A stretch of 64,000 nucleotides of DNA from Bdellovibrionales bacterium (GCA_965262715.1 OZ253553.1:1-64000); one strand, 5' to 3'. Shown: positions 38,546 through 61,890, counted from the stretch's first letter. Notes: generated by a model not told the origin, from the sequence alone. A program made the numbers and translations.

Positions 38546-38711
38546 CTTAAATCATCAGAAAGGTAGCTTTGTGTTAGTGAGCTTTTTGGCAAGGTCTTCT
38601 GAGGATGAAAATCCCTTTTTAATTCTATTAACAGTCACTTTCTCAACATCAAATAAAATCTCCTTAGCACAATAACTTGATCCAAGTAGCAATGAGATAT
38701 TTATAATCAAT
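38546..38711 (-). repeat. Island module, part B (only copy without the +1 frameshift; 5' end cut by an IS30 end)
   Basis: Homologous to 41259-41460, 46315-46475 and 54241-54450; translates IINISLLLGSSYCAKEILFDVEKVTVNRIKKGFSSSEDLAKKLTNTKLPF*. Confidence 0.85.
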
Positions 38712-38908
38712 CGTAACTTCAAATCACAAGTGCAACTCTTTTGTGTTTATAGATATTTTTAAAAGTTGTATCATTTTAAGATTAATATTTCAACAAAGTT
38801 TTAATTATCATGAAAGATTATTGTAAATTATTTAATTTGAATGAATGTATTTTGATGTTTATGGCAAAGCCAAAGTAGTCCTTAAGCTAAAGCTCTGCGG
38901 AAGAACGA
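38712..38908 (-). mobile_element. IS30 right-end remnant
   Basis: Near-identical to 30018-30213 and to the reverse complement of 44237-44432. Confidence 0.9.
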
Positions 38909-39151
38909 CAAAATATAAATGGAAAAGCCTGTTCAATAGAATGTCCCTTTTTTACGTTATTTATTTGTATTTAACGAAAAAATGGAACATATCTTTTATA
39001 AGGTCGTTAAATGATCAATTGGAACTGAATTCAATTAAAAAGAACCAAAACGATGAAGTCAGGAGAAAAGGCCAAAATAAGCTCCATAGAGTAAGAATAC
39101 AAATGCACTTTCAATAGACTGTCCAATTATTTTTGGAGCTTGTCTTTTTAT

Positions 39152-39604
39152 CTAAAAAACTGATTTAAATATTCTTATTAGAGGTGTATCAGGAAGAGTT
39201 GTAGAAGGTTCTTTTTCAATTTTTTCTCTAACATCCTTTAACTTCTTGTTGACAGCATCAATATCTACAAAAGATTGGAAATATTTAGTAACCTTATCAA
39301 GAAAGGCTTCTTCTTCTTGACTCATAACACGATCTTTCCAGAAAAGTAGACGAGTAAAATAAACAGATTGGGATCGATGACCTGGCTCTGTGATTTTAGG
39401 TAAAATTTCATCTATGGATGCTGGATCTTTCAGCTCTTTTCTTAATATTTGTTTTTCATTTTCATCTAGTTCTAGAGATTTAATGTAAGAGTTTATCATG
39501 TCTACTTCTTTTTCATGCACATTATGATCAACATGAACTGCTAAAACCACTAATCTCCACATATTAAAGAAACTTTCTGATGACATTACTAAAAACCTCC
39601 TCAA
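39152..39604 (-). CDS. TerB-like (tellurite-resistance B fold) protein
   Basis: LAVHVDHNVHEKE and D..MSQEEEAFL paired helical motifs; start may be MSSES. Confidence 0.65.
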   Translation of the reverse strand: MRRFLVMSSESFFNMWRLVVLAVHVDHNVHEKEVDMINSYIKSLELDENEKQILRKELKDPASIDEILPKITEPGHRSQSVYFTRLLFWKDRVMSQEEEAFLDKVTKYFQSFVDIDAVNKKLKDVREKIEKEPSTTLPDTPLIRIFKSVF

Positions 39605-40057
39605 ACTAACTTATTATTATAACTTTTCTACTTGAAAACAACAAAAACTATACCTTATAAAGCTTGCTCCTGACTCGAAGTTTTTCCCTGAGTAAGAACA
39701 CTTCCTCGATCACTGCCATATCTGTAGTATATCTATGGCAATGACAAACATAACGATCTCCACAAAGTTCGAGCCTTGACGCTGATGCCACTGCTTCACT
39801 GTTCCGATGAAAAATTATCCTCTATCGCCTGTTATTGCACTACAGATTGTCATATTGAATCAGTAAGAAATATTATATCCTACTAAATACCAAAATTCAA
39901 TTTTTCTTAAGATATTATGATAAAAATTCTTAAAGAAGCAAAAGCAGATATTGATTTTTACTCTAACAAGGCAAAAGCTTATAAAAAACTTCTAGAATCT
40001 GCAATAAAGACTTTGCTATATTTCAAAGAAAGAACTAAAGAAAAACTAAAAACAAGT

Positions 40058-40296
40058 CCTGGCTTCATCGTTTTACACATACTTCATTTAATAATTTTAA
40101 TAGTTTATGTGTTTCAGGTGTCACTACATTTGCTTGTTATTTGAGAGAGCTTTGGAAGTGTATGTTAAGTTAGTTTTTGTCTTCTCCTATAAGTTTTGTT
40201 TGAGAAAATTTGATATTAAGAGCTTCATAAATATGTCTTTGAAGGTTTGTGACATTTGAAGGTAGAATAAATTTTCTTCCTGTTATCTTATCCAAA
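40058..40296 (-). mobile_element. IS1634-like 3' remnant
   Basis: Minus-strand fragment DKITGRKLFLPSNVTNLQRHIYEALNI*, then tgtagtgac and a terminal ...gaagccagg. Confidence 0.45.
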
Positions 40297-40335
40297 TCAT
40301 GAGTGGAGATATCTAGTATTTCAGTTACTCTACTA
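40297..40335 (-). repeat. Island module, junction motif only
   Basis: tcatgagtggagatatcta matches 41661-41679 and 58945-58963; 40498-40530 also resembles 41709-41740. Confidence 0.6.
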
Positions 40336-40340
40336 ATTTC

Positions 40341-40441
40341 ACTCAAAATAAACCAGCCTCTGGCTGTTTTTGGGCAATCAGCGTGATGGTTAACACCATC
40401 AGCAAAATGCTGATTGCCTCAAAAATTTGTTTATTTTGAGT
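40341..40441 (+). repeat. Structured repeat family A, copy 3
   Basis: actcaaaataaac/gtttattttgagt outer stem, cagcc-tct-ggctg and tgatggt-taac-accatca hairpins. Confidence 0.75.
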
Positions 40442-40632
40442 AGATAGATACTCTTCTTTTTTTACACAATATTAAGGAAAATTTATCTTTTTTTATAATA
40501 TGCAATAATGGTCCTCAAATCTACAAGTATCTAAAAAATATAAAAGCAATATTAATGAAATTAAGATATTGACTTTGTTAATTTTTAGTATATACTGAAA
40601 ATATGATGATATGCCTGCGGCAGTTTTAGAAC

Positions 40633-40923
40633 ATGAAATTTGAATGGGATGAAAATAAATCAAAGCAAAACTTAAAAAAGCATGGAATCCACTTCTTTCT
40701 AGCAGTCACTGTTTTTGATGATCCTTTTGCTTTAATTGCGCCAGATGAAAAACATTCTACTGCAACTGAAAAACGAAAGTGGATTATAGGAAAATCTGAT
40801 AAAGGAGTTCTCGTTGTTGTTTTTACTATAAGGCTTCATCAAACTTATCGCATCATTAGTGCTAGAAAAGCAAATAAAAAGGAGAGAGAAAATTATGAAA
40901 AATATAAAAGAATTTCCATTTGA
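40633..40923 (+). CDS. BrnT-family toxin (DUF497)
   Basis: FEWDENK..NLKKHGI.F and RIISARKA motifs; TTGACT-16-TATACT upstream. Confidence 0.92.
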   Translation: MKFEWDENKSKQNLKKHGIHFFLAVTVFDDPFALIAPDEKHSTATEKRKWIIGKSDKGVLVVVFTIRLHQTYRIISARKANKKERENYEKYKRISI

Positions 40924-41161
40924 AAAATCTAGACGTATTACAGAAAAAGAAGCTTCTGCTGCTGCAAAAGCTATTGAAAAAGTAACAGGTAAAAAACGTC
41001 AGGCAAGAGGAAGGCCTATAAAGATAGAAAAAGACAAATATATTCCTATTTCTATCAGATTACATCCAAGAGTTTTAAAATGGGCTAAAAGAGAAGCAAA
41101 AGAAAGAAAAATAGGTTACCAAAGTATCATAAATGAAATATTAATGAAAAAATCTATTTAA
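40895..41161 (+). CDS. BrnA-family antitoxin
   Basis: RGRP, ISIRL and GYQSIINEIL motifs; overlaps the toxin 3' end. Confidence 0.88.
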   Translation: MKNIKEFPFEKSRRITEKEASAAAKAIEKVTGKKRQARGRPIKIEKDKYIPISIRLHPRVLKWAKREAKERKIGYQSIINEILMKKSI

Positions 41162-41258
41162 GTTTCAATAATCGTTGATTTTCCATATGTAATTTATAGG
41201 TTTTATTTGTATTAATTACAACCTATTTATTACATTTCTTTTTTTCAACAATATATTT

Positions 41259-41700
41259 TTTAAATCATTAGAAAGGTAGCTTTGTGTTAGTGAGCTTTCT
41301 GGCAAACCTTTCTGAGGATGAAAGTCCTTTTTTAGTCCTACCTGTGGTTAATTTCTCAACATCAAATAAAAGCTCTTTGGCGTGGGTAACCTGATCTAAA
41401 TAGCAATGATATGTTTATGATAATTTTAATGAGTGTTTTCATTATTTCCTCCTGTTTTTAAAAATTTGTGTATATTCTTTATAATTTTGTGTTTTCTTAA
41501 AGCTCTTAAAATAGAGCTTTTTGACCATGAAGATTGAGTTAGCTCCTCAATATCACGAGTGGAAAGCTTGAAATCAACATAGAGTTTCCATAATATTTTA
41601 ACGCTTTTTTTTTTTGGAGTGTTAAGAAAATGTGTAATAAATAAAGATACATGGCCAGAATCATAAGTGGAGATATCTAATACTTCCCTTACTCCATCAT
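41259..41700 (-). repeat. Island module, complete copy (part A HTH-like ORF 41426-41716 plus part B)
   Basis: Aligns end to end with 54241-54660. Confidence 0.9.
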
Positions 41701-41917
41701 ACCAACCAATATGCAATAATGGTACTCAAACTAGCAAGCAGTTGAAGAATCGTTTTAGGAGACAAACTTAAATTGTGCATTCTTGATCCATTTCCATTTT
41801 TTAATAAATTAATTTCTTTAAACCAATGTGTTAATTACTAAATTAAAAAGCGTTCTGTCTTGACAACAAAACTTAAAATCTATTTTTAGAAAAAGTTCGG
41901 ATTAGTTTCAACAGTGT

Positions 41918-42748
41918 TTATAAATCTAATTGTCTATAAGTCCTTTTTACTATTCGAAAAACATTTTCATATTCAGGTAATTCTTTAAACATTTGAATTG
42001 AAAGCCTCTTATCCCATAATTTTTTAAGACGTTTTTCTTTTTTTAGAAATTCACCACTTCTTTCTTTAAGTGAACTACCCTTAAATTTTAATTTTCTATC
42101 AACATATTCATTAAGGTTATCTAAATCTACTTTTGCTTCAGAAATGAGATAATAGAAATCAAATAAATCTCTAGGTTCGTTTCTAAATGGTGTAAAAAGT
42201 GTACAAGTTTTCTCAATAGCAATTTCTTTCAATGAATAAACTCTTACAGTTGGATTTTGTAGAAAGTCAGAATATTCTTCATAAGTTTTAATAATACTTT
42301 TTTCTTCCACAGAATCAACTAAAATCTCCCTATAAGTGATATCAATCTTTATTTCTTTTGCTTTCCCTGGAAATGGACCAATATAAGAGATATAAAAGGT
42401 GTGAGTGTTATATGTTGATATCTCTTGCCTAACATGGCTAAACTGAATCCCCACTTCTTTCTTTATCTAAGAGAAAGTTGCTTCGAACTCCTTTAAAATT
42501 TCTTTAAGAGATATTTCTTGTATAAGTGTGAAATCTAAGTCTTCCGAAAAACAATAATCGCTGAAATAACAACGTCTAAGAGCTGTACCTCCTTTAAAAA
42601 TAAGATGGTCCCTTAACTTTGAATTGGAAAGACCAAATAAAAACCATGCAAGACAGTAATCTTTTTCAATAACAGCTTCAGGGACCTTACGCATTCCATC
42701 TTGATAAACCCTATTTGAAATAAGTGAAATATTTCTTTGTGGAATCAA
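41918..42748 (-). pseudogene. AbiEii-family nucleotidyltransferase toxin with an in-frame TAG at 42467-42469
   Basis: EKDY, FKGGTAL, FSEDLDF and EK...RDLFD motifs; both track ORFs are in the same frame. Confidence 0.88.
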
Positions 42749-42750
42749 AC

Positions 42751-43093
42751 TTATGTCCTTATTACAGCTTTAAACTCTTCTTCTAATATATTAAGTCTCA
42801 AATGCCACCTGGAGTCATATCTTCCTTCGTCTATAAGACATGGATCCAAAAGAAGATATTTTTTACTAATTTTATTTTTTAACTTCTTTAAAAGGCTTTC
42901 TTCTGCAACTTGATAAACATCTAATAGGAAACCCAGTCTTCTAAAAACAACTCCTATATTAACTTTAAATGCATATTTAACTAACTTATTTATATTAATT
43001 TTATTTCTTTTTATCCATAAACCTTTTGCAACTTCAGTGATCCCTCCGCAATACTGAGGGAGTTTAAGACCATCAATAATTGTTTTTTCAATA
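42751..43093 (-). pseudogene. AbiEi-family antitoxin, 5' part removed at the IS30 junction
   Basis: EKTIID..P.YCGG..E, RRLGFLL and W.L..N motifs; abuts the IS30 TIR. Confidence 0.82.
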
Positions 43094-44432
43094 GGTGGAT
43101 TCAAGTTGCAAGTGCAACTCCTTGCATAGTTATTTAAAGTGGGTTAGAGGAATACTCTAATCAATAACTTTACATAACGAAAGGAGTATTCCATGAGTAA
43201 GTACACTCATCTAACCCAAAGTGATAGATACCAGATTTTAGCTTTTTTGCAAAGTGGAAAATCAATAAGTTCAATTGCTACGCAACTAGGTCGAGATAAA
43301 AGCACCATATATAGGGAATTGAATCGTAACAAAGGTTTGCGAGGTTATCGTCCTCAACAAGCCCATGAAAAAGCAGTCGATCGTCTTCAAAACTCTCATA
43401 GACATATAAAGATAACACAAAAAGTCATTAATAAGCTTGAGAGGTTTCTTCGTGATCGTTTGAGTCCGGAACAGATATCCGGTTTTCTTAAACGAAAAGG
43501 TTTGTCTATAAGTCATGAGAGTATTTATCAGCATATTCTTGGAGATAAGCAATCAGGAGGAGATCTCTACAAATTTTTAAGATGTCAGAAGCAACGCAAG
43601 AAGCGATATGGTACAAGTAGATTTGATAAAAGGGGTCAGATAAAGAATAGAGTGAGCATTGATAAAAGGCCTAAGATAGTAGATAAGAAGCTTCGGATAG
43701 GAGACTGGGAAGGTGATCTAATGATAGGTAGACATCATAAAGGAGCTTTAGTCACTCTGGTAGATAGATGTTCTAAGAAGACGAGGATTGTCAAAATAGA
43801 ATCTAAGAGTTCTGAGGCAGTTTTTCATGCTATTTCTAAAGCTCTTAAAGGAGAGGTTGTTCATACAATGACTTTGGATAATGGTAAAGAGTTTTCGTGT
43901 CATGAGAAGATCAGTGAATATACTGGATGTAAAGTTTATTTTGCACATCCTTACAGTTCCTATGAGAGAGGTTTAAATGAGAACACGAATGGTTTAATCC
44001 GTCAGTATTTTCCAAAGAAGACAGATTTTAGAGAAGTCACCTCTAAGGATGTAAAAAAGGTTGAGTCTCTTTTAAACCATCGCCCTCGAAAGAGTTTAGG
44101 TTTTCTAACCCCTAATGAGTTTCATAGACAAAAGATGGTTTGCTGAAGTTATTCATAGTTTATCCATTTAATTTTACTTATATATAATAACTTCTGAAGA
44201 TGCTTATTTGACAGCTTGATGTTTATGGCAGAGGATCGTTCTTCCGCAGAGCTTTAGCTCGGGGACTACTTTGGCTTTGCCATAAACATCAAAATACATT
44301 CATTCAAATTAAATAATTTACTATAATCTTTCATGATAATTAAAACTTTGTTGAAATATTAATCTTAAAATGATACAACTTTTAAAAATATCTATAAACA
44401 TAAAAGAGTTGCACTTGTGATTTGAAGTTACG
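43094..44432 (+). mobile_element. IS30-family element, copy 2 (inverted relative to copy 1)
   Basis: TIRs ggtggattcaagttgcaagtgcaactc / gagttgcacttgtgatttgaagttacg. Confidence 0.93.
43193..44146 (+). CDS. IS30-family transposase
   Basis: 317 aa; about 26 substitutions versus copy 1 by manual comparison; GDWEGD intact. Confidence 0.95.
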   Translation: MSKYTHLTQSDRYQILAFLQSGKSISSIATQLGRDKSTIYRELNRNKGLRGYRPQQAHEKAVDRLQNSHRHIKITQKVINKLERFLRDRLSPEQISGFLKRKGLSISHESIYQHILGDKQSGGDLYKFLRCQKQRKKRYGTSRFDKRGQIKNRVSIDKRPKIVDKKLRIGDWEGDLMIGRHHKGALVTLVDRCSKKTRIVKIESKSSEAVFHAISKALKGEVVHTMTLDNGKEFSCHEKISEYTGCKVYFAHPYSSYERGLNENTNGLIRQYFPKKTDFREVTSKDVKKVESLLNHRPRKSLGFLTPNEFHRQKMVC

Positions 44433-44509
44433 AAATAATATATATACCAAAGCTAGCTTATAAACTGAGAGAGTAATTTAAATCAACAGTCTCACTTTGA
44501 TAAAATGCT

Positions 44510-44608
44510 AAAATGACTACTGAGAGTAGTCATTTTTTTAGTTATTCAAATAATATCTTGCAAATACTTTGATAAAGTACTAAAATGACTACTATGAGTA
44601 GTCATTTT
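44510..44608. promoter_or_regulatory. Two 11-5-11 inverted-repeat operators (probable AbiEi autoregulatory sites)
   Basis: aaaatgactac-N5-gtagtcatttt at 44510-44536 and 44582-44608. Confidence 0.75.
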
Positions 44609-45391
44609 GATGGAAAAATAAAGAAGCTTCAACACCTTTTACCTACTAATGGGATTATCACCCAACAGTGCATGGACTTATATGGCATATACCGTCAGCT
44701 TTCAAGGAAATATGTTTTAAGTGGTTGGCTTGAGCGTGTGGGGAATGGAGCTTTTAAAAGACAAGGTAATAATGTGAGCTGGGAAGCAGCCTTAAATGCC
44801 ATACAAAAGCAATTGAAATCACCTGTGCATATTGGAGCCAAGTCTGCTCTAGAAATCAAAGGAGGGGGTCATTATTTAAAACTAGGTCGTTATTTTAAGA
44901 TGTTTCTTTTTTCATATACCACCACATGCAATCTTCCTAAGTGGTTTTATGATCAAAATTGGAAATTAAGATTTATGCTTATTAAGACAAACTTATTTCC
45001 TGAAGGCTTTGAGGTAGGACATACAAAAGAAGAGATGAAGGGCTTTGAGGTGGTTCTCTCATCAAAAGAACGAGCTATATTTGAGCTTCTGTACCTCATA
45101 CCGAAGCACCAAACATGGAATGAGGCTGATCTCATATTTGAAAACCTTGTGTCTCTTCGACCCAAAGAAATACAAATTCTATTAGAGAAGTGTTCCTCTA
45201 TAAAAGTTAAGAGAATGTTCTTATTCTTTGCTGAACGACATAATCACCAATGGTTTAAAAAATTAGATCTTAAAAAAATTGATCTTGGATCGGGAGACCG
45301 ACTTATTCACAAAAAAGGAAAACTGGATAAAAAATATCGAATCACTGTTCCTAAATCTTTATTGAGTGAGAATAATTATGACAAAGACTAG
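44585..45391 (+). CDS. Type IV TA antitoxin, AbiEi family
   Basis: SGWLERVGNGAF, SSKERAIFELL, LLEKCSSIKVKRMF and IDLGSG motifs; start may be 44594. Confidence 0.88.
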   Translation: MTTMSSHFDGKIKKLQHLLPTNGIITQQCMDLYGIYRQLSRKYVLSGWLERVGNGAFKRQGNNVSWEAALNAIQKQLKSPVHIGAKSALEIKGGGHYLKLGRYFKMFLFSYTTTCNLPKWFYDQNWKLRFMLIKTNLFPEGFEVGHTKEEMKGFEVVLSSKERAIFELLYLIPKHQTWNEADLIFENLVSLRPKEIQILLEKCSSIKVKRMFLFFAERHNHQWFKKLDLKKIDLGSGDRLIHKKGKLDKKYRITVPKSLLSENNYDKD

Positions 45392-46304: not shown

Positions 46305-46314
46305 GTGCCCTCAA

Positions 46315-46475
46315 TCTGATGATGAAAATCCTTTTTTAATCCTCTTAGCAGTCATCTGCTCAATATCAAATAAAAGCTCTTTGGCGTGGGTAACCTGATC
46401 CTAATAGTAATGATATATTTACAATAATCTTAATAAATGTTTCCATCCTTTTATTTTCTTCTGTTTTTAAAAATT
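46315..46475 (-). repeat. Island module, part B
   Basis: tcaaataaaagctctttggcgtgggtaacctgatc shared with the 41.4 kb and 54.4 kb copies. Confidence 0.85.
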
Positions 46476-46512
46476 CGTGGCTACGGTGGTATAAGGCAGC
46501 AGTTTAAGTTCT

Positions 46513-47463: not shown

Positions 47464-47615
47464 TAAAACACCGCCTTTAATTCATGTAACCGTAGACCCC
47501 CTCTTCTGTCTAATACTTCTCAGGGCATCCACTCCATTTTTTCTTTAAATAGCGCAATCTATCATATATAGTCCTCTTACCATCTTCAAAATACTCCTTT
47601 ATTCTCATTCATACT

Positions 47616-47737
47616 TATGATTTTGTGTACCCTTAAAGCCTTTAAAATAGAGTCTTTTGGCGATGAAGGTTGATTTAGCTTCTCAATATCATGAGTGGAA
47701 AGCTTGAGATCGATGTAGAGTTCTTTGTAAAATTTTA
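47616..47737 (-). repeat. Island module, part A (partial)
   Basis: caatatcatgagtggaaagcttgagatc core shared with the other copies. Confidence 0.85.
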
Positions 47738-47793
47738 GGTTTTTTCTCATGTAACTTCTTGATTAATTCAATATAAATGAATGTTGAACAACT

Positions 47794-48591: not shown

Positions 48592-49488
48592 TTAAAATGT
48601 AAGGAGATTTTCAGGGCAAGAACTAGAAAGTATAATTTTTTTTATATCGCTTATGTAAGGCTCTATTTCTTCAAAGTCTATTCTTCCATCTGATGATAAC
48701 TCTTCTTCAACTTCTTTTAATAAAGCTAAAAACTCTTCTCTTACTTCCTCTGAAAAAGTTGCTTCGCTATGAATTTCTTCAAATTTCGCTTTGAGATCAG
48801 TTAACACTTCAGGTATAAGACTCGGTGGATTTATTGTTATATTTTCTATTTCATCTTTAACTTCTGAGATCTCTCTTTGAGCTAAGTGTCGCTTTTGTGG
48901 AGCCACTGTTTGAGTTTGAGCTCTTCTTCTTCTCTTTTCTTCTTCGATGCGCGCCCATATAGTTACATTTATTGGGTGGGTGTTAAACTCTTTGGCCACT
49001 TCTTCCAAGTCCTGACCTTGTAAGAGCTTTTCAGCAGCTTGAGACTTTTCTTCTAAACTGAAATCTAGTCCCCTTCGCAGTTGTGAAGCTTCGCCTGTTC
49101 TTTCTCTTTCACTACGTATCAATCTAAATATATCTCCTGGAGTTGTATTAAATTCTGTAGCTAAGTCTTCAAAAGCGACCCCTTCTTCTACCTTTTCAAG
49201 TAACTCTGAAATTCTGTTTTGAGTAAGATGTTGCAGAGTGGAAGGTCGTTGTTGCCTTTGCCGTGGAACTGTCTGCTCATTTGTTCCTTGTCTTGCAGCA
49301 TGAACCCAATTACGAACACTTTGTACACTAGCATTGAATCTTCTTGCTACGTCTGCAACGGTACTACCACCATTTACCATTTGTACAGCTTCTGCTTTTT
49401 GTTCTGGAGTAAAATCAGCAAAAACTAACTCATGACTCAGTAAGAGGATAAAGAAAAAGAAAAGTATATAGCCTTGTAGAAAATTCAT
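48592..49488 (-). CDS. Secreted protein with three HTH-like repeats
   Basis: Signal peptide ending VFA; FTPEQKAEAV..VADVARRF..VRNW and two related repeats. Confidence 0.7.
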   Translation of the reverse strand: MNFLQGYILFFFFILLLSHELVFADFTPEQKAEAVQMVNGGSTVADVARRFNASVQSVRNWVHAARQGTNEQTVPRQRQQRPSTLQHLTQNRISELLEKVEEGVAFEDLATEFNTTPGDIFRLIRSERERTGEASQLRRGLDFSLEEKSQAAEKLLQGQDLEEVAKEFNTHPINVTIWARIEEEKRRRRAQTQTVAPQKRHLAQREISEVKDEIENITINPPSLIPEVLTDLKAKFEEIHSEATFSEEVREEFLALLKEVEEELSSDGRIDFEEIEPYISDIKKIILSSSCPENLLTF

Positions 49489-49728: not shown

Positions 49729-50425
49729 GGTTCATGACATCATGAGTTGACTTCTAGAGTGTTTAACTTATTGTTATGACTATGAAAAACAAGTATATTA
49801 TCTGTTCCCTCATTTCTGAGAAGAAATTTAGAGAAATTATCCGTTATTTTTCAGGAGATTTAACAGCTCAACAAATAAGTTATTTTTCCGGTATAAGCAG
49901 AAATGCTATTAACAGAATTTTAAAAAAGCTTCGCATAAGAATAGCTGAATTTTGTGAAAAGGAAAGTATTTTTTCAAAAGGAGAAATTGAAATAGATGAA
50001 AGTTATTTTGGAGCTAAACGGGTTCGTGGTCTTCGTGGTAGAGGATCAAGTGGGAAAACGATCGTCTTTGGTTTGAAAAAAAGAAAAGGCAAAGTATATA
50101 TACTCAAGTGATTAAAAATTGCTCACAAAGCATTCTCGTGCTTCTCATAAGCCAAAAAACACCTAAGAGTGCTACTGTTTTTACAGATGGTTTTAAATCC
50201 TATGATAGCCTTGTAAATATAGGGTATAAGAGACATTACCGTGTACATCATGGAAAGAATGAATTCGCTAAAAAAGAAAAAAATATTAACAATCACATTA
50301 ATGGAATAGAAAACTTTTGGGGTCTGGCTAAAGTAAGACTTTTTAAGTTTAGAGGTATGAATAAAAAAACATTTACTATTAATAAAAAAAATACACCTAA
50401 TAAGGTCCTGATGGTGTCATGAACC
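49729..50425 (+). mobile_element. IS1595-family element with a frameshifted/truncated transposase (49776-50422)
   Basis: TIRs ggttcatgacatcat / atggtgtcatgaacc; EIDESYF, TDGF and HINGIENFW motifs. Confidence 0.88.
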
Positions 50426-52998: not shown

Positions 52999-53036
52999 AT
53001 GAGATTTTATATCCGGAATCTGGCATTCAGACAGAC

Positions 53037-53097
53037 TGGTCTGTACCCCATAAACTGGAAAGTTAAGTGATAAAGTAACTCACTTGAGATTCCTGAA
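53037..53097 (+). mobile_element. IS3 left-end remnant (IS3-like right ends also near 53385-53408 and 58584-58605)
   Basis: One mismatch versus 32145-32205. Confidence 0.8.
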
Positions 53098-53761: not shown

Positions 53762-54071
53762 AATAACCCCAATATTCTTTAGCTTTTTTAATATCCCTGT
53801 TTTGTGTCTTTTTATCTCCACCAACTAATAACAAAATAACCTCGTCATCATCTTCTCCAAAATACACTCTAAAACCAGATGCATATTGAATCTTTATTTC
53901 AAAAACACCATCTTTTAAATTCTTAAGCGACTTTTTTGCACCACCTTGTGCAACTCTTTGAATAAAACGGTCAATAATAATTTGACTTTTGATGTCCAAA
54001 TTATTAATCCAATCTAAAAAGGGAGATCTACCACTATCAGTTATATAATAATCAACCCTTTTAGCTACCAT
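53745..54071 (-). CDS. RelE/HigB-family toxin (addiction module killer protein)
   Basis: GRSPFLDW, GVFEIKI, GFRVYFG and LLVGGDKKTQNRDIKKAK motifs. Confidence 0.92.
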   Translation of the reverse strand: MVAKRVDYYITDSGRSPFLDWINNLDIKSQIIIDRFIQRVAQGGAKKSLKNLKDGVFEIKIQYASGFRVYFGEDDDEVILLLVGGDKKTQNRDIKKAKEYWGYYAKQK

Positions 54072-54240
54072 TTTACCCTTCTGATTATAAACTACATAAA
54101 AATATGTAGTTTGTCAAGCTCTTTAAAAACACCTTTAATTCTTTTTATCAATTCATCTTAACCTTCTACAACCAAATATCCTATATAATGTTCCTTGATA
54201 AACGAGAATTGTATAAAAGCAACATTGATACATCATATTT

Positions 54241-54660
54241 CTTAAATCATTAGAAAGGTAATTTTGTGTTAGTGAGTTTTTTGGTAAGGCTTTCTGATGA
54301 TGAAAATCCTTTTTTAATCCTCTTAATAGTCACTTTCTCAACATCAAATAAAATCTCCTTGGCGTGGGTAACCTGATCCAAGTAGCAATGATATGTTTAT
54401 GATAATTTTAATGAGTGTTTCCATTATTTCCTCTTTTTTTTAAAAAATTGTGTGTAAATATCCTTTATGATTTTATGCTTTCTTAAAGCCCTTAAAATAG
54501 AGCTTTTTGACGATGAATATTGAGTTAGCTTTTCAATATCACGAGTGGAAAACTTAAGATCAACATAAAGTTTTAAGTAAAATTTTAGCACTTTTTTCTG
54601 GAGTGTTAAGAAGATGTGTAATAAATAAAGATACATAACTAGAATTATCGGCGGAAATGC
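54241..54660 (-). repeat. Island module, complete copy
   Basis: Same left end (ttaaatcattagaaagg) as the 38546 and 41259 copies; both ORFs frameshifted. Confidence 0.9.
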
Positions 54661-57003
54661 CTATAAACATAGCTGCTGAAATATTATAGATTTTAGTTTT
54701 TGACAATCTGTAGCCGTAGTGCCGCCGTTTGAGCCTACACAGTGCCATGTATAATGTGTATTTGTATCGGCTATCGCTGAGTCATTTGCTGTGCCAGAAG
54801 AACAACCATTTTGTTGACTGTTATTACAAACGCCGTTTACCGGTGCAGATTTTGCTTTTTGACAATTTGTAGCAGTAGTGCCGCCATTTGCACCTACGCA
54901 GTACCATCTATAATGTGTATTTGTATCTGCAATAGCGTTGTCATTAGCAGTACCAGCAGAGCAGCCATTTTGTTGGTTGTTATCACAAGCACCGTTAATA
55001 GGTTTTGCCTTTTGACAATTTGTAGCAGTAGTGCCGCCGTTTGAGCCTACACAGTGCCATGTATAATGTGTATTTGTATCGGCTATCGCTGAGTCATTTG
55101 CTGTGCCAGAAGAACAACCATTTTGTTGACTGTTATTACAAACGCCGTTTACCGGTGCAGATTTTGCTTTTTGACAATTTGTAGCAGTAGTGCCGCCATT
55201 TTTACCTACACAGTGCCATGTATAATGAGTATTTGTATCTGCTATAGCTGAGTCATTTGATGTGCCAGCAGAACAACCATTTTGTTGACTGTTATTACAA
55301 ACACCGTTAACAGGTTTTGCTTTTTGACAATTTGTAGCAGTGCTGCCTCCATTTGAACCTTCACAGTGCCATGTATAATGAGTGTTTGTATCGGCTATAG
55401 CTGCATCATTTGCTGTGCCCGAAGAACAACCATTTTGTTGACTGTTATTACAAACGCCGTTGACAGGAGGTATAGCTTTTGTACAACTTGCTGTTGCACC
55501 ACCATTTGAGCCAACACAATGCCATGTATAATGAGTACTTGTATCAGCTATTGCGCCGTCGTCTGGAGTCCCAGCAGTACAATCATTTCTGATGGTGTCA
55601 TCGCCGCAAACACCATTTATTGGTGCTGCTGTATCAATGGCCATACTGCAGCAACCTGTAGCATCAGTGCCATCGTTGGTACCTAAACACTGCCACTGAT
55701 AATGAGTTTCTGAATCATCTATGTCATTTAAAGTACCTTGAATACAACCATTTTTGACGGAGTTATTACATTCTCCATTTACGATTGAAGATGGATTGCG
55801 TGTAACAGCTTGGCCTAATATAGAATTGTCACAGGTCTGATAACTTAATGGACCAGGTAAAGGTCCGGAAAAATAACAATAGCTGCCATCTGATGGACAG
55901 TAATTATAATAAAACTGTTCAACTATATCATCTACCGAAGTTTGACTATCTATAGTGGTAGAAGAAGAGGTTGAAGCTTGTATTGCTATAGTACTTTTTA
56001 CACAGACTTCAGTTGAAGTGATGTCTATTACACCATCACTGCAATTTAGTACATCCTCACTGCCACTATCAATTTGAAATTCACATTGATTCGCATTTTG
56101 AATATTTGTATGTAATGTCCAAGTTCCACCTTCAGGTCTTAAATACTTATAAATGTTATTACTTTCTAACATCACAGCAATTTCTTCATCATTATGTTTA
56201 ATAGTTATTGGATTAAAATGAGGTTTAGAATTAGAGCTCACTTGCAAAACTTGTTTTCGATAGGTGAGGCAATCAGAATTGTCAGGATCTTCTGCAGACA
56301 CCTCAATAGTAACAGAACCAGTAGATTCATCGGTAAAGTCTAATTCAATACTTTCACTATCATCTTCGTTTGTCTCCTCAGTTGAAGAAGGTAATGTGAC
56401 TTTCCATATAATGTTCGAAAAATCTGTAGCATTCTTTAATTCAAAAGTGGCAGTCTGTCCAACAGTCAAAGAACCGCTTTCAAGAAAGATCTCTAAGACA
56501 TCTGTTAATGAGCATTCCTCACCAATCACGAGTTTTTTACTGGCCACAGTTAACAAATCGGAGTTTTTATAAGATGTAGCAAAAATATCATAACTTCCAG
56601 GTTTTTTAAATTGATATTGATATTCTGGTTCAGTTGTTGTCTCTTCTCCATCAGTAACAGTTTCAAAGGATCTAGTAATTTTCCATTTAAAATTTTCAGA
56701 ATCAGAATGACTATTCATAACCTTTAGTTTCACATCACTATCAATTAGGAAATAATCTTCTATCGAGATGCTTTCATCTTCTGATGGTAAATAAGCAATA
56801 ATATAACCTTTATCATTAGATACCGTTTGTTCAGAAAACAGGTTAGGAGCTTGACTTATATTTGAACCGCAGTTTTGAAAAGCTAATAACAATAAAAGTG
56901 AAGCCAATAGAAGTAGATAAAAAGCATTATTAAAACTTAACAAAAAATGCTTTTTTATGTTTTGTTTTTTTATAACCCTAAAGAATTTCATTATTTTTTT
57001 CAT
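54661..57003 (-). CDS. Lipoprotein-like surface protein: FQNC motif, PKD/Ig-like region and seven ~52-aa Cys repeats
   Basis: LLLLAFQNC; YQFKKPGSYDIFA; repeat NGVCNNSQQNGCSSGTAND..DTNTHYTWHC.G.NGG.TATNCQK. Confidence 0.88.
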   Translation of the reverse strand: MKKIMKFFRVIKKQNIKKHFLLSFNNAFYLLLLASLLLLLAFQNCGSNISQAPNLFSEQTVSNDKGYIIAYLPSEDESISIEDYFLIDSDVKLKVMNSHSDSENFKWKITRSFETVTDGEETTTEPEYQYQFKKPGSYDIFATSYKNSDLLTVASKKLVIGEECSLTDVLEIFLESGSLTVGQTATFELKNATDFSNIIWKVTLPSSTEETNEDDSESIELDFTDESTGSVTIEVSAEDPDNSDCLTYRKQVLQVSSNSKPHFNPITIKHNDEEIAVMLESNNIYKYLRPEGGTWTLHTNIQNANQCEFQIDSGSEDVLNCSDGVIDITSTEVCVKSTIAIQASTSSSTTIDSQTSVDDIVEQFYYNYCPSDGSYCYFSGPLPGPLSYQTCDNSILGQAVTRNPSSIVNGECNNSVKNGCIQGTLNDIDDSETHYQWQCLGTNDGTDATGCCSMAIDTAAPINGVCGDDTIRNDCTAGTPDDGAIADTSTHYTWHCVGSNGGATASCTKAIPPVNGVCNNSQQNGCSSGTANDAAIADTNTHYTWHCEGSNGGSTATNCQKAKPVNGVCNNSQQNGCSAGTSNDSAIADTNTHYTWHCVGKNGGTTATNCQKAKSAPVNGVCNNSQQNGCSSGTANDSAIADTNTHYTWHCVGSNGGTTATNCQKAKPINGACDNNQQNGCSAGTANDNAIADTNTHYRWYCVGANGGTTATNCQKAKSAPVNGVCNNSQQNGCSSGTANDSAIADTNTHYTWHCVGSNGGTTATDCQKLKSIIFQQLCL

Positions 57004-57157
57004 TGCTCTATACTTTCATCATCGTTGTATTACGAACCTTCTTTTATGTGCTATGTACTGCTAGTTGTCCAAAAATTTGAAAGGTAAAATGAATAAAAAT
57101 ATCAAAAATGTAAATCTTTAAAACCAAGCCAAAAGACTGGGTTTTTAGCCTACCTGG

Positions 57158-57333
57158 ACTGTAACTTACGTACAAAAGTTACAGTATTAAGTTATTGAAA
57201 TAACTACCGATACAGGTATTGAAGGGCTTTAATTGCTAATAGTCTTTGGTGTAGAAAACGACCAAAAACATCAATGATTTTAAGGGGACAGGACTGTAAC
57301 TTATGTACGTAAGTTACACTATCAAGTTATTGA
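57158..57333. promoter_or_regulatory. Two 28-bp palindromes upstream of the repeat-protein gene
   Basis: actgtaactt-N8-aagttaca(g/c)t at 57158-57185 and 57293-57320, each followed by aagttattga. Confidence 0.6.
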
Positions 57334-57408
57334 TTTTATTGAGTTATTCGAAGTTTCTATCTTTTTTCGATATGGCATTAAGGTCATGAAAAAGTCCAGG
57401 ACCGTTGT

Positions 57409-58012
57409 AAATTGATACAATATGTGCTTCTATGTGCCTTTCTTAAAAATAACTCCTTATATTTCCATTTTAGTGAGTTTTAAAGATTTCCTTAACATGA
57501 TGTAAGAGAATGAAGGGAGTCTCCTTACTAAAGAATAAACATGCTTTTGAGGTAGTCAGCTTTTTATTGAAGGTGTGAACCTTCAAGCTGATTAGATACA
57601 TTTAAAGAGTCTATTATCTATAAATTAAACACTGTAATCTTTAAAAATCTCAGTGAGACAAGCCTTAACGCTTGTCTATTCCAAAAGTGGTCAGAGACCA
57701 GTTTATTTTTAGTGAAACAATTGCAAATTGATACAATATGTGCTTCTATATGCCTTTCTTAAAAAAAACTTCTTATATTTCCATTTTAGTGAGTTTTAAA
57801 GATTTCCTTAACATGATGTAAGAGAATGAAGGGAGTCTCCTTACTAAAGAATAAACATGCTTTTGAGGTAGTCAGCTTTTTATTGAAGGTGTGAACCTTC
57901 AAGCTGATTAGATACATTTAAAGAGTCTATCATCTATAAATTAAACACTGTAATCTTTAAAAATCTCAGTGAGACAAGCCTTAACGCTTGTCTATTCCAA
58001 AAGTGGTCAGAG
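57409..58012. repeat. Tandem 288-bp duplication (57409-57696 and 57725-58012; third partial copy ~58220-58287), each with a partial family A element
   Basis: Near-identical sequence with a period of 316 bp. Confidence 0.92.
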
Positions 58013-58067
58013 TTAGGAGATGGATTGTTTTTTAGAAAAACAAGGAAAAATCTTTGGAGCAATGATT

Positions 58068-58159
58068 TTGATGTTTTAAGCCATTTCTGGAAGTCCTCGA
58101 TTGATCGCTTTGGTAGCGATCAATCTGCGGAAGATCTCGTCTTTGGCTTAAAACATCAA
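58068..58159 (+). repeat. Structured repeat family B (related copies inside IS30 at 30158-30233, 44216-44292 and ~38852-38908)
   Basis: Long outer stem enclosing AGTCCTCGA-hairpin-TCTGCGGAAGA. Confidence 0.7.
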
Positions 58160-58288
58160 CTCTTAATTCCTATGATAAAGATTATAGGTGATTTGTAAGG
58201 AGAAGAGACGGTAAGAGGAAGATTTCCTTAACATGATGTAAGAGAATGAAGGGAGTCTCCTTACTAAAAAATAAACATGCTTTTGAGA

Positions 58289-58462
58289 ATGCCAGCATTA
58301 CAAATGATGAGAGATCGTATAAGGCAAGAAGCTCGACAGGAAGGGTTGCAGAAAGTTGCTATAAATCTTCTAAAAACAACTGATATGGATATACAAGCCA
58401 TAAGTAAAGCAACAGGGCTTTCAGAAAAAGAAGTCTTGCAAATTCAAAGCAAGTGCCAATAA
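58289..58462 (+). CDS. Stand-alone C-terminal tail of an Rpn/YhgA-like (PD-(D/E)xK transposase_31) protein
   Basis: RQEARQEGLQKVAINLL..MDIQAISKATGLSEKEV motif. Confidence 0.65.
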   Translation: MPALQMMRDRIRQEARQEGLQKVAINLLKTTDMDIQAISKATGLSEKEVLQIQSKCQ

Positions 58463-58828
58463 TGTACTTGTATCATTATATGACTTGTACAATACATACA
58501 TTTATACAACTCTATTTTCATTTGTTTATAAGAGGTAAAACTTTTTAGGAAGTTTGTTTCTAATCAAATAACGTAACTTCAAATGAGGTGCACCTTTTAT
58601 TTGGCCACCACTTCAAGTGAATTTTGTTTATTTCATCCTAAAAGCTCTAATAATGACAGTACAAAACTTTGCCGCACCTGCGCCTCATTCAGCTGTTTTA
58701 AGAAGGTTACGGCCTTCTGATGAGTGAGGTAGAATCTCGTTCTTAGAGATAAGATCATCATACTCACGACATAATAAATTTAGGTGTTCAGAACTGAAAT
58801 ATGACACAGTCATCCAAAATTGGATGAG

Positions 58829-58978
58829 TTTTTCAATATCACGAGTGGAAATCTTTAAATTGATGTAGAGTTTTAAGTAAAATCTCATCACTCTTTTCTG
58901 GAGTATTAGAAAAATGTGTAATAAATAAAGAGACATAGTTGGAGTCATAATTGGAGATATCTAAATATTGTATACTCC
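58829..58978 (-). repeat. Island module, part A with junction
   Basis: Homologous to 61157-61285 and 54530-54660. Confidence 0.88.
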
Positions 58979-58987
58979 ACCAATCCT

Positions 58988-60394
58988 GAGGATGTCCCAC
59001 GTTTCGGTGAAATTGAAGTTAAGCAGAGCTTGATGTTTTGCTACGCCTGTTTCTATTGTTAGTCAATAGGTTTAAATTTTCTTCCATTGTATTTAAATCT
59101 TTATACCCTTTAATAGCTCTAAACTTTTTTTCAGCTTCAACTAAAGAAGCAGCAGCCCATCTCATAACCTGATCTGGAGAACTTCTCCAGTTCTTAACCC
59201 TGCTGACTTTATCTCTTACAATAGAAAAAGCAGACTCAATAGGATTTGTAGAAGATAAGGTTCTCCTTAGCAGTGGAGATACCTTCAACTTGATAACTGT
59301 CAGTGTCTCCTCCTTTGCTTCCTTAAGTGAAGCCAATGCTGCATAATTAATCCTGCTTAACCAACTCAGTAACTTATTGTATTCTCTCTGAGCAGAATCA
59401 TAATCATTAAAACCATGCACCATCTTCCAGCGACGCTTAAACTCTAAATGACGTTCCTGAGGTAAATAACTTAAAACATTCCTCTCCTTGTGGTGAATAC
59501 AGCGTTGAACTACTGCTCTCTTACCAAAAACTCTATTAATAGCTGTCCTTAAAGATCTGCTACCATCAATTACAAAAAGGTAAGGCTTATCTGAACAAAG
59601 ACCTCTTGCTATTAAACTCTCTAATAAGTCCTTGCAAACTTCCCAGTTCTCTGTATGACCCTCTCTAAGACCCAGAACTAACTTCTTACCTTCAACTGTG
59701 ATGCCAAGAGCTACAACCACTGTCCTTGATCCAAAAACAACACCATCAATCATAATTGATGAAAACTTATCCTTACTCAGATCACGACCATTTAAAGATT
59801 CAAGAAACTTCCTAGATGACTTATTAAAGACTCTGCTCACTGTACTCTTAGAAAGACCCGTCCCTCCTACAATATCATCAAGAAGTTCATTGTAATTACG
59901 ACAAGATACCCCTCTCATAGCATGACTCAAAACTTTATCACAAAGTATGTCATACTTTTGAAGCACTGAATAAGACCGCAGCTTAATATCAGAACCTCCC
60001 TTCTCCTTCACCCTAGGCTTCCTCACCTGAAGCCTTTGACCTTGTGCAAGAACACTCCCAGAATCACTACCCGCTCTGTAATATCTTGTATCACGACCAC
60101 GACCATGACGCTTACCACACAGTGATAATAACTCATCCTCAAAGAAATCATGGATCATATTAATAACCATTGATCTCATGCGATGCTCTAGGATCTCTCG
60201 AATCTCATTTGACTCAGATGATAAAACTTGAATTGAATAACCATTCTTACTACTCTTCATAATAGCTCCTTTCTGTTATCTATTTCCTGATAAAATAAAA
60301 ACAGTAAACAACGGCTAGACCACTTAGGATAGCCGGGAGCTCTACTTTCTTCTAATTTCTATAAGAAAATTTCACCGATCTATGGGACAACCTC
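58988..60394 (-). mobile_element. IS256-family element with an 8-bp target duplication (CCAATCCT)
   Basis: TIRs gaggatgtccca..cggtgaaatt / ttcaccga..tgggacaacctc; ccaatcct at 58980-58987 and 60395-60402. Confidence 0.95.
59019..60260 (-). CDS. IS256-family (mutator) transposase
   Basis: IMIDG, VIDG, QRCIHHK and STNPIES motifs. Confidence 0.94.
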   Translation of the reverse strand: MKSSKNGYSIQVLSSESNEIREILEHRMRSMVINMIHDFFEDELLSLCGKRHGRGRDTRYYRAGSDSGSVLAQGQRLQVRKPRVKEKGGSDIKLRSYSVLQKYDILCDKVLSHAMRGVSCRNYNELLDDIVGGTGLSKSTVSRVFNKSSRKFLESLNGRDLSKDKFSSIMIDGVVFGSRTVVVALGITVEGKKLVLGLREGHTENWEVCKDLLESLIARGLCSDKPYLFVIDGSRSLRTAINRVFGKRAVVQRCIHHKERNVLSYLPQERHLEFKRRWKMVHGFNDYDSAQREYNKLLSWLSRINYAALASLKEAKEETLTVIKLKVSPLLRRTLSSTNPIESAFSIVRDKVSRVKNWRSSPDQVMRWAAASLVEAEKKFRAIKGYKDLNTMEENLNLLTNNRNRRSKTSSSA

Positions 60395-60595
60395 CCAATC
60401 CTTTTGACCCTTATAAAATACTTGCTTCTCAAAATTATAACAGTAAGTTAACTCCTATAAAAGTCAACTTAAGGTGTCATGAACCTACTAAATAATTGCG
60501 ATCAAGTTGGGATTTATCTAATATTGTTTAAGATTTGCACAAAATAATTTACAAGTTCTAAATTTGTGGTATATTTGTTGTTAGGTGGTGATATT

Positions 60596-60811
60596 ATGAA
60601 AGCTACAAAAAATAATTCTCCTATTTCTATAGACTTGACTGAAGACACCAAAAGTCTTCTTGAAAATTTCTGTAAGAAAAAAGAAATAGATATCAATGAT
60701 CTAGTTGAAAATGCAATACTTGAACACATTGAAGATGAAATGGATAGGTCTATCATTACAACGAGAGAACATGAAGAATTTGTTGAGTGGAAGAAAAAAA
60801 AGCACGCCTAG
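60596..60811 (+). CDS. RHH/RelB-like antitoxin
   Basis: RBS AGGTGG; LVENAILEHIEDEMD; directly upstream of a RelE gene. Confidence 0.75.
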   Translation: MKATKNNSPISIDLTEDTKSLLENFCKKKEIDINDLVENAILEHIEDEMDRSIITTREHEEFVEWKKKKHA

Positions 60812-61076
60812 ATGGAAAATAGTTTTTCAAAAATCGGCTTATAAAGAATATCAAAAGCTTCCTCAAAAATTTCAAGAGAAGATAGACAAACTCCTAGAAC
60901 GTCTTAAAATTAACCCTTTTGATGATGTTTTAAACTTCAGGAAAATTCAAGGAAGAGAGCATTTTTATAGAATTAGAGTCGGAAATTATAGAATTGTCTA
61001 TACATTAAAGAAATCCATATTAATCATATTTATTATCAGAATAGGTCACAGAAAAGATATTTACAAATTTTTTTAA
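60771..61076 (+). CDS. RelE/ParE-family toxin (start uncertain)
   Basis: KIQGREHFYRIRVGNYRIVY..IRIGHRKDIY. Confidence 0.88.
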   Translation: MKNLLSGRKKSTPRWKIVFQKSAYKEYQKLPQKFQEKIDKLLERLKINPFDDVLNFRKIQGREHFYRIRVGNYRIVYTLKKSILIIFIIRIGHRKDIYKFF

Positions 61077-61095
61077 ATTACTCTTACTCTTATTT

Positions 61096-61285
61096 TGATT
61101 TTGTGCGTTCTTAAAGTTCTTAAAATAGAGCTTTTTGACGATGAATATTGAGTTAGCTTTTCAATATCACGAGTGGAAATCTTTAAATTGATGTAGAGTT
61201 TTAAGTAAAATCTCATCACTTTTTTCTGGAGTATTTAAAAAGTATGTAATAAACAAAGATACATAGCTAGAGTTATAAGTGGAGA
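61096..61285 (-). repeat. Island module, part A with junction
   Basis: Homologous to the other copies; ends at gttataagtggagac. Confidence 0.88.
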
Positions 61286-61347
61286 CGCACAAGACATCTT
61301 TACCAGATTTAAATATTGCTAAAAAAAGAATGAAGGATGTTTTATGA
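61284..61347 (+). pseudogene. C-terminal remnant of a HigB/Gp49-like toxin
   Basis: Manual translation THKTSLPDLNIAKKRMKDVL*, with ATGA overlap into the HTH gene. Confidence 0.5.
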
Positions 61348-61652
61348 AGAAAAAACATTATAAACCTGCAAAACCTTTTTTTAAGAAAATCCTTGAGGAT
61401 CCAGAAATACGTATTAAATATGAAGAAGAAAAAGCAAAAACTGAAATTGCTTTAATGGTTAAGAGAGCAAGAAAAAATGCTTTACTTACACAGTGTGAGT
61501 TAGCAGAGAAAATTGGAACGAGTCAAAGTGTTATTGCCAGACTAGAAGGGGGTCATGACTTATGTACACCATCACTTTCTTTGCTTTCTCGAATAGCTGG
61601 TGTTTGCGGCGGTATTTTAGAGCTTGGATTTGTTTTTAAAAAAAACTTATAA
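61344..61652 (+). CDS. XRE-family HTH protein (HigA-like antitoxin)
   Basis: LTQCELAEKIGTSQSVIARLE..PSLSLLSRIA. Confidence 0.88.
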   Translation: MKKKHYKPAKPFFKKILEDPEIRIKYEEEKAKTEIALMVKRARKNALLTQCELAEKIGTSQSVIARLEGGHDLCTPSLSLLSRIAGVCGGILELGFVFKKNL

Positions 61653-61681
61653 GATTTAACAAACTATTCTTTAAGAACTGT

Positions 61682-61890
61682 ATTGTCATTCATAGTATGA
61701 TTTTGTGTTTTTTTAAAACCCTTAAAATAGAGCTTTTTGACGATGAATATTGAGTTAGCTTTTCAATATCACGAGTGGAAAGCTTGAGATCAACATACAA
61801 TTTTAAGTAAAATTTTAGCACTTTTTTCTGGAGTGTTAAGAAGATGTGTAATAAATAAAGATACATAACTAGAATTATCGGCGGAAATGC
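61682..61890 (-). repeat. Island module, part A with junction (duplicated together with the repeat-gene tail)
   Basis: 61698-61990 is nearly identical to 54468-54760. Confidence 0.88.

Follow-up and report, generated by a model that had tools for sequence, protein, structure and literature searches.

What are the short DNA modules that lie, all on one strand, between otherwise unrelated genes near the start of a Bdellovibrionales genome? The stretch in question (hereafter the window) covers the initial 64 kb of a genome in one contig (2.94 Mb and 33.6% GC; GCA_965262715.1, OZ253553.1:1-64000), and its housekeeping genes have 55 to 67% identity to Bdellovibrionales metagenome-assembled genomes. 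A previous description made from the DNA alone (the sequence-only reading) had reported a module of two parts, A and B, at nine loci of the window, and had taken these loci either for the repeated ends of serially integrated islets or for the recombination sites of an integron-like array served by a recombinase in trans. Comparative data support the former. The module is probably the far (attR-side) end of islands driven by a large serine recombinase (LSR) and serially inserted behind the transfer-messenger RNA (tmRNA) gene, and it consists of a severed integrase tail (part A) and a small neighboring gene (part B).

A blastn search of the whole genome with both full copies as queries (41240-41720 and 54230-54680, minus strand) recovered all nine loci, every one on the minus strand, with E values from 2e-4 (a 36-nt junction piece) to 0, and independent repeat finding returned the same pieces as families D6-D8 and D11-D14. 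The genome-wide matches merge into 38 places. From 38.5 to 98.7 kb, all 16 of the 16 module remnants are on the minus strand and point at the tmRNA gene at 23.3 kb, as the sequence-only reading had expected of a single array in one orientation. The other places fall into about nine more clusters, which lie on one strand or the other and are each uniform in orientation. Six near-full copies, when aligned, have sharp boundaries with common ends, CCTTTCTAATGATTTAA at the B end and ATCTCCACTTATGA.. at the A end. These shared ends are real, and at the A end the homology extends about 30 nt beyond what had been noted, up to a TGGTGGAG core; the likeness of the module left ends stops just upstream of TGGTGGAG, which is the reverse complement of the tmRNA end CTCCACCA. 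The two full copies examined lack consistent terminal inverted repeats, which agrees with the module having been called free of them. Copies are only 75 to 90% alike, and the cargo between them is unrelated. A 21-nt module motif scanned against genome contigs gave four matches, all unrelated.

Part A is an open frame in several copies. The part A open reading frames (ORFs) of the window have no Pfam match and lack a PF07508 half, and in a near-length database search the only relatives of part A were 12 lineage-restricted small ORFs, all of 72 to 111 aa; no longer homologs were found in the database search. A 127-aa ORF of genome G022, with 57% identity to part A, runs on into a PF07508 Recombinase domain (E = 1.8e-8; 35 bits), and hhalign matches part A to the helix-turn-helix (HTH) region of a family of small proteins, here called gene 1 (95.5%; E = 1.4e-8). 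In the genome of the window itself, four of the five PF07508 matches above the cut-off sit 28 to 33 nt upstream of B-only copies. On these matches, part A is the apparent N-terminal extension and HTH of the gene-1 family, whose members of ~155 aa comprise an HTH and the first half of PF07508 Recombinase; the suggestion that part A is the start of a small PF07508-type gene was thus well founded. The genome holds 14 gene-1 matches, among them an intact paralog outside the window with a PF07508 score of 27.9 bits (cut-off, 21.1), and intact gene 1 encodes 161 and 150 aa in the two gene 1-part B pairs listed in Table 1. The full modules of the window retain the gene-1 tail (..NIYK..GGNNGNTH, overlapping the start of B) without the Recombinase half and are therefore an internal-deletion form. 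An AlphaFold2 model of gene 1 (predicted local distance difference test, 86) has a three-helix HTH, a hairpin, and three helices, and its best Foldseek matches in the PDB are serine-integrase complexes (74-75 columns; root mean square deviation, 2.6-3.2 Å).

Part B is a conserved 57-aa gene with a GGAGG ribosome-binding site and the hydrophobic N-terminus first noted from the DNA, and it matches no Pfam or PHROG family. Its frame is intact, at 57 to 58 aa, at 83, 808, 1165, and 1192 kb, with a 56-aa match at 1141 kb and a 55-aa frame at 38.7 kb; a +1 frameshift is common to the six copies at 41, 46, 54, 91, 876, and 948 kb.

The origin of gene 1 is apparent from related genomes. In G014, the tmRNA gene is followed on the opposite strand by a gene for a 624-aa LSR (Resolvase, Recombinase, and zinc ribbon), the last codons of which come from the tmRNA 3' end (..VRFGG and then GGGNRTPV). 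Beyond the LSR are type IV secretion genes, a TIR effector, and BREX, and 38.7 kb onward the tmRNA end and flank recur as a 15-nt repeat, at which a gene-1 copy in the orientation of the LSR begins. The gene-1 open frame at this repeat also reads ..VRFGG and then RSLRL.., and a second gene-1 copy lies 7 kb on. In G085 the order is gene 1, 31 kb, LSR, and tRNA-Ala. Hand cross-tabulation of the 25 contigs with both genes placed LSR and gene 1 on one strand, with gene 1 lying 1 to 42 kb upstream of the LSR, in 18 contigs, fused or adjacent in 3, and in another arrangement in 4, a count that overstates independence because the genomes are kin. The fused or adjacent cases include unsplit open frames over LSR and gene 1 in G149:C46 (784 aa) and G099:C126 (650 aa).

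In 9 of the 11 elements checked, the LSR frame runs into a tRNA or tmRNA gene on the opposite strand, the targets being tmRNA and the tRNAs for Ala, Asp, Met, Pro, and Asn; of the other two, G052 has no tRNA by Aragorn and G008 ends at a contig edge. An integrase gene at the tRNA-proximal island end is thus present in these nine elements, and none is found in the window. Gene 1 in relatives starts at the attachment (att) core TGGTGGA, the reverse complement of the tRNA end, and its N-terminus is conserved as MVD/MVE because it is ATGGTGGA, the reverse complement of TCCACCAT. In all four pairs (of nine) in which the tRNA-end 9-mer could be matched, the LSR and distal gene 1 share its reading phase, and by inspection the core phase is the same in both genes of G014 and G085. 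The att-side repeat is 15 nt in G014 and 13 nt in G030. As a separate observation, both gene-1 copies of G014 (L105, G014:C1, ~6720-6900 and 13730-13800) are bordered outside the core by ..CTGTCACCCATGTCTCCGG.., which resembles the end of an insertion sequence (IS), and one of them has an rve transposase gene alongside; the IS seems to target the att site too.

The gene-1 family is widespread, with 656 cluster representatives at an E value of ≤1e-3 in a 50%-identity library. PF07508 was detected in 17 of 22 family proteins scanned, and two proteins, P0058 (737 aa) and P0140 (671 aa), have Resolvase and Recombinase domains with a gene-1-like stretch at the C-terminus. Gene 1 occurs in 73 of 151 sampled genomes of the order, with one to eight matches per genome; many matches are a few hundred bases from contig ends, and several genomes have two or three copies 3.5 to 7 kb apart. 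Where copies are grouped in this way, gene 1 flanks BREX, AbiE, AbiG, AAA_13 ATPase, and ResIII helicase genes. When P0058 was searched against five complete genomes of one genus, three had gene-1 relics without a nearby LSR (in one, an LSR is ~3 Mb from the relic) and two had no matches. Pairs of gene 1 and part B are also found at loci L093, L094, L097, L101, and L127 of other genomes; of 33 gene-1 ORFs outside the genome studied here, 6 have a B homolog after them, and B is therefore a clade-specific companion. At L093 (G085:C1:675639-679100), positions 1-1490 hold an opposite-strand gene for a group II intron-type reverse transcriptase that ends just upstream of the gene-1 start; here the att-core region may be an intron target.

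In the genome of the window, the tmRNA 3' end is proposed as the anchor (attB side) of the island stack. The sequence-only reading had advised a search for a recombinase or a tRNA anchor; the tmRNA gene, 15 kb upstream, would provide the anchor, but no intact cognate LSR was found genome-wide. TCCACCA plus the 20-nt tmRNA flank (27/27 nt) recurs reverse-complemented at TGGTGGAC cores at 1164645-1164671 and 1194408-1194434, with a gene-1 5' fragment directly after the core at the 1194408 site and a flank-like inverted copy instead at the 1164645 site. An 8- to 9-nt CTCCACCA(A) core is present at 58970-58983, 91296-91311, and 98431-98445; the core is degenerate at 40.3, 41.7, and 61.3 kb and lost in the copies with a type i junction. 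The sequence-only reading had described neither this anchor nor the att core that marks the module's true left end, nor that some copies (54 kb, 61.9 kb, and others outside the window) were duplicated along with the 3' end of a Cys-rich repeat gene.

A relic of the undivided gene is found outside the window. At 91485-91303 (minus strand), a stretch similar to the C-terminus of the G014 LSR, with one stop, continues in frame via ATTGGTGGA into part A (..GSSKTGIGG and then VAEVLDISTYDSS..); it is an unsplit or tandem-junction relic and adjoins the module at 90861-91309. PF00239 has no match in the window and only two in the genome (1840857 and 2049952), so that the module is to be seen as an LSR-gene fragment and not as a recombinase. 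An "LSR-like" gene of this genome (1840509-1841276) was rejected as a candidate, its product being a 255-aa small resolvase of another kind. The features of the window, with the related loci elsewhere in the genome, are collected in Table 1.

Table 1. Anchor, module copies, and IS-type genes of the window, and related loci elsewhere in the same genome
Feature	Position	Strand	Remarks
tmRNA gene (ssrA), 3' end ..CCTCCACCA	23340..23694	+	Rfam RF00023, 164.5 bits; aragorn
20-nt flank after tmRNA gene	23695..23714	+	
B-only remnant	38538..38722	-	Open 55-aa B frame 38555-38722; blastn piece 38538-38707; tblastn with B, 75% identity over 53 aa
Degenerate att core ATTAGTAGAG (40322-40337) and first 36 nt of A extension, truncated	40295..40337	-	Adjoins repeat X copy; blastn piece 40295-40330
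Full short module	41240..41720	-	Degenerate core 41687-41701
A ORF of 41-kb module	41426-41716	-	96 aa; N-terminal extension and HTH, without Recombinase half
B of 41-kb module	41268-41442	-	+1 frameshift
IS30-like gene	43193-44146		Pfam
B remnant	46315..46479	-	Frameshifted; 3' end cut by AbiEii gene; after hydrolase gene
A remnant (HTH part), variant tail ..KIISMNENKGVF	47586..47750	-	Upstream of hydrolase gene; blastn piece 47615-47747
HTH_Tnp_1 gene	48592-49488		Pfam
IS1595 pieces	49776-50422		Pfam
Full short module, type i junction	54230..54680	-	Joined ~25 nt past core position to 3' end of Cys-rich repeat gene
A ORF and B of 54-kb module	54424-54636; 54250-54424	-	B frameshifted
A 5' remnant, exact core TTGGTGGAG (58970-58983)	58816..58983	-	blastn piece 58816-58964
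IS256/Mutator transposase	59019-60260		Pfam
A remnant, degenerate core region 61295-61310	61093..61310	-	blastn piece 61093-61285
A remnant, type i junction	61696..61910	-	96% identity to 54-kb copy, repeat-gene end included
Gene 1-part B pair, gene 1 intact	1161545-1162208		B frameshifted
Gene 1-part B pair, both open	~1191740-1192352		
Further LSR relics	2823269-2823910; 1922121-1922246; 1188250-1188968		Last of these upstream of 1192-kb pair

The islands would thus be integrative and partly conjugative elements that are driven by an LSR and have the 3' end of tRNA or tmRNA genes as their insertion site. The attachment site would sit within the reading frame of the recombinase, so that the free or tandem form would encode one long protein made up of the catalytic domain, the Recombinase domain, a zinc ribbon, a coiled coil, and a ~150-aa tail, the latter composed of a short extension, the HTH, and a second half-Recombinase domain. 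Integration would sever the gene: the LSR body would remain beside the tRNA or tmRNA gene and read into it, and the tail (gene 1, part A) would come to lie at the far island end, beginning at the att core TGGTGGA (MVD/MVE or ..GG) and followed in one clade by the 57-aa gene (part B). In the genome studied here, islands would have piled up behind the tmRNA gene and some tRNA genes and subsequently lost the recombinase bodies and most other genes, and the severed tails would have persisted as same-oriented punctuation among toxin-antitoxin, Abi, and IS cargo. The short A+B form would derive from an internal deletion of the Recombinase half, and some copies would have been multiplied by local duplication.

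We read the stack at ~23.7-98.7 kb as the probable outcome of serial insertion followed by loss of LSR and other genes, IS insertions, and local duplications. This reading builds on homologies, on the geometry in relatives, on the reading phase shared across the core, and on the in-frame relic at 91 kb, all of which are observed; G014 has the same layout as the window stack but with an intact LSR. Serial integration here is reconstructed and not observed, because the window has no LSR and the genome no intact cognate one. Synteny with G001, of the same genus, was uninformative because that genome is too diverged (DNA identity only 73 to 81%) and rearranged, and the module and gene 1 were not found in it with the queries used. 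Public sequencing runs are represented by short Logan contigs that end at modules and IS elements, with few module-module joints, the sides of which are <30 nt.

Several findings weigh against serial insertion of split-gene islands. BLASTP of part A against the intact gene 1 of the same genome is not significant (E = 2.3), and the Foldseek E values of the gene-1 model are weak (0.04-0.27). Among relatives, three of nine pairs (G089, G044, and G079) have no core match at gene 1; in the window, the cores are at best 8 to 9 nt and are degenerate in four copies, and not even a fragment of an LSR body was detected. Only 5 of ~10 genome clusters show the predicted geometry relative to a tRNA or tmRNA gene no more than 50 kb away, versus ~0.28 by chance, a result that is not significant on its own. 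Some "islets" measure just 0.4 to 2 kb. Six or seven short A+B copies have one internal deletion and one B frameshift in common, and the junction with the Cys-rich repeat gene is common to five to seven copies (54 kb, 61.9 kb, and three to five outside the window); part of the array is therefore duplication and not independent insertion.

We see a small chance that the array is mostly ordinary segmental duplication and homologous recombination of one block, consisting of the end of the Cys-rich repeat gene plus the module. The copies at 54, 61.9, 73.5, 83, and 2735 kb do have the 3' end of a repeat gene upstream of the module, those at 54 and 61.9 kb are 96% alike over 300 nt, those at 41 and 91 kb share their downstream flank, and the deletion and frameshift common to the short copies point the same way. 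At least four window copies (40.3, 41.7, 58.9, and 61.2 kb), however, each end on the left at the att core, past which the sequences are unrelated, and the copies are only 75 to 90% alike and separated by unrelated cargo; duplication also leaves unexplained the uniform orientation toward the tmRNA gene and the equal layout of G014 with its intact LSR. That A and B form a free-standing, self-spreading selfish unit of two genes, for example, an HTH regulator and a small membrane peptide acting as an addiction pair, is very unlikely: neither part matched a toxin-antitoxin family, A is the tail of an LSR reading frame, B follows so few gene-1 ORFs in other genomes (6/33), and B is frameshifted in six copies of this genome, even though the reading frames of A and B overlap, the ribosome-binding site of B is strong and its N-terminus hydrophobic, and the copies lie amid toxin-antitoxin and Abi loci.

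The integron-like cassette array, in which the modules would be recombination sites for a recombinase encoded elsewhere, is highly improbable. It would account for the single orientation, the small cargo units, and the many toxin-antitoxin genes, as in chromosomal integrons. Yet no tyrosine integrase is nearby (PF00589 matches only at 892939 and 1303918 in the whole genome), the cargo is encoded on either strand, the modules consist of decayed coding sequence and vary in extent (some are A only, others B only), and the genome offers no intact cognate LSR to act in trans; the integron hallmarks considered here are thus lacking, although no attC search was made. We give almost no credence to an ordinary miniature inverted-repeat transposable element or other nonautonomous transposon. 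The number of small copies (38 places) would suit one, but consistent terminal inverted repeats are missing from the two full copies, the content has its homologs in protein-coding genes conserved across an order, and the copies are clustered and co-oriented within each cluster and not, as the sequence-only reading had expected of such an element, scattered in random orientation.

A further idea can be put forward tentatively and is judged possible but doubtful: the splitting may be a built-in state switch and not an accident, with only the circle or tandem junction encoding a full-length, integration-competent LSR that bears the additional HTH and half-Recombinase tail. The truncated LSR and the free tail (with B in one clade) would then set directionality or repress re-excision, and the tail-bearing island end, a mimic of the tRNA 3' end, would be the landing pad of the next island. 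If this were true, the system itself would build defense-rich stacks, and hundreds of small "recombinase-domain" ORFs in databases would be working parts of the switch.

The cargo named by the sequence-only reading was confirmed by Pfam as DUF533/TerB, BrnT/BrnA, two AbiEi/AbiEii loci, a hydrolase, ankyrins, Gp49/HigB-like, ParE/RelE, and HTH_3, on either strand, to which the four IS-type genes of Table 1 are to be added; core genes start again at ~97-100 kb. The hydrolase gene lies between the A remnant at 47.6 kb and the B remnant at 46.3 kb. Its insertion into a full module was considered and dropped: the 47.6-kb A copy has a different natural tail, which is also present in database proteins P0006 and P0007, and is therefore simply another arrangement. 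The first islet after the tmRNA gene encodes a 433-aa protein that combines HEPN/RES N-terminal and RES domains (35429-36730, plus strand) and is followed by a 515-aa protein without a family; the two are a candidate defense or toxin pair. The Cys-rich repeat proteins (54661-57003 and 62112-63998, both on the minus strand) are secreted-looking and composed of 51- to 53-aa repeats (..VNGVCNNSQQNGCSSGTANDSAIADTNTHYTWHCVG..); paralogs occur at 73, 83, and 2735 kb, with a module copy after each, and a 780-aa copy has a weak Colicin-DNase match (E = 2e-4) at its C-terminus. Between a repeat-protein gene and the 58.8-kb module remnant, positions 57405-58300 contain near-identical 292-nt direct repeats (98%) and a third, partial copy.

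A second repeat adjoins some of the same sites. Repeat X, of ~150 nt and ending in ..GATGCATTTTAGTGAAA, has 322 blastn matches in the genome, 199 of which reach the 3' end; it is found in the window at 40338-40490 and also at 1191566, 1197561, and 1205133. It adjoins the module core at 40.3 kb and two other cores, as well as the ends of several tRNA genes (Ala, Asp, Gly, Arg, Ser, and His), and seems to have a preference for tRNA-end-like sequence. At 858247-860987, seven 431-bp tandem units lie beside tRNA-Ser(gct), and each unit contains repeat X with the 5' end of the tRNA duplicated after it. A shared LSR-side arm had been considered for the ~150 nt preceding the core at 1197 kb and at tRNA-Ala (1205 kb) and was dropped because this sequence is repeat X.

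With severed integrase tails as markers of old island ends, an odd repeat becomes a readable history: the 75-kb stretch behind the tmRNA gene would be a graveyard of integrative islands, with which toxin-antitoxin and abortive-infection genes had arrived. The widespread, unnamed ORFs of ~155 aa with half a Recombinase domain would be explained as the distal halves of integrase genes that are severed when the elements encoding them integrate, and gene-1 tails could be useful for the calling of island boundaries and for annotation.

Co-oriented serine-recombinase islands at one site, some without a recombinase of their own, are known from the composite staphylococcal cassette chromosome islands of staphylococci (CcrAB), the target of which is rlmH/orfX and the recombinase gene of which is unsplit. 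In Myxococcus phage Mx8 (IntP/IntX), attP is located inside the int coding sequence and integration alters the C-terminus, the enzyme being a tyrosine recombinase. A split serine integrase was not found described in the literature searched.

The archaeal SSV-type "suicidal" tyrosine integrases have attP inside the integrase gene, so that integration into a tRNA gene partitions this gene to both ends of the element, and a 2021 review calls self-disrupting integrases exclusive to archaea (PMC8371274). Geometry and reading phase suggest that attP is likewise inside the integrase gene in the family described here. In contrast to the tyrosine recombinases of archaeal viruses and plasmids treated there, however, the enzyme here is a serine recombinase of bacteria that would lose no more than an accessory module at its C-terminus, leaving the catalytic body whole. 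Because the enzyme is a serine recombinase, the family is not a member of the SSV type and is alike in one respect, as a bacterial serine-recombinase counterpart to the self-partitioning integrases of archaea. The tycheposons of Prochlorococcus also form islands beside tRNA and tmRNA genes in which newer elements push older ones outward, with fragmented integrases and partial tRNA copies scattered in the islands and an LSR in 27 of 937 elements (bioRxiv 10.1101/2020.12.28.424599). They differ in having mostly tyrosine recombinases, and the available portion of that preprint mentions no split of an integrase gene.

The closest precedent in print is the tandem ssrA islands of Dehalococcoides, several of which occupy the 100 kb downstream of the tmRNA gene, with repeats of the tmRNA 3' end as their boundaries (McMurdie et al. 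2011, PMC3146451). Their integration module, on the reverse strand by attL, is led by the LSR DsiB, the frame of which overlaps attP/attL, and some ssrA islands are without an integration module (PMC3146451). A co-oriented stack directly downstream of the tmRNA gene is likewise found here (16/16 on the minus strand). The two systems differ in that the severed piece here is a ~150-aa module, predicted to be folded and DNA binding, with its own ORF that starts at the core and is followed in one clade by the 57-aa gene; in that the crossover would be at the acceptor/CCA end here and is in the T-loop there; and in that the family described here uses many tRNA genes besides ssrA, the window retaining tails only. 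The authors of that study suggested that the recombinase is perhaps complete only on the circle or beside an island that supplies "the requisite 3' gene fragment" (PMC3146451). Gene 1 would give this idea about DsiB a concrete protein module, with which the split as a control of directionality becomes testable.

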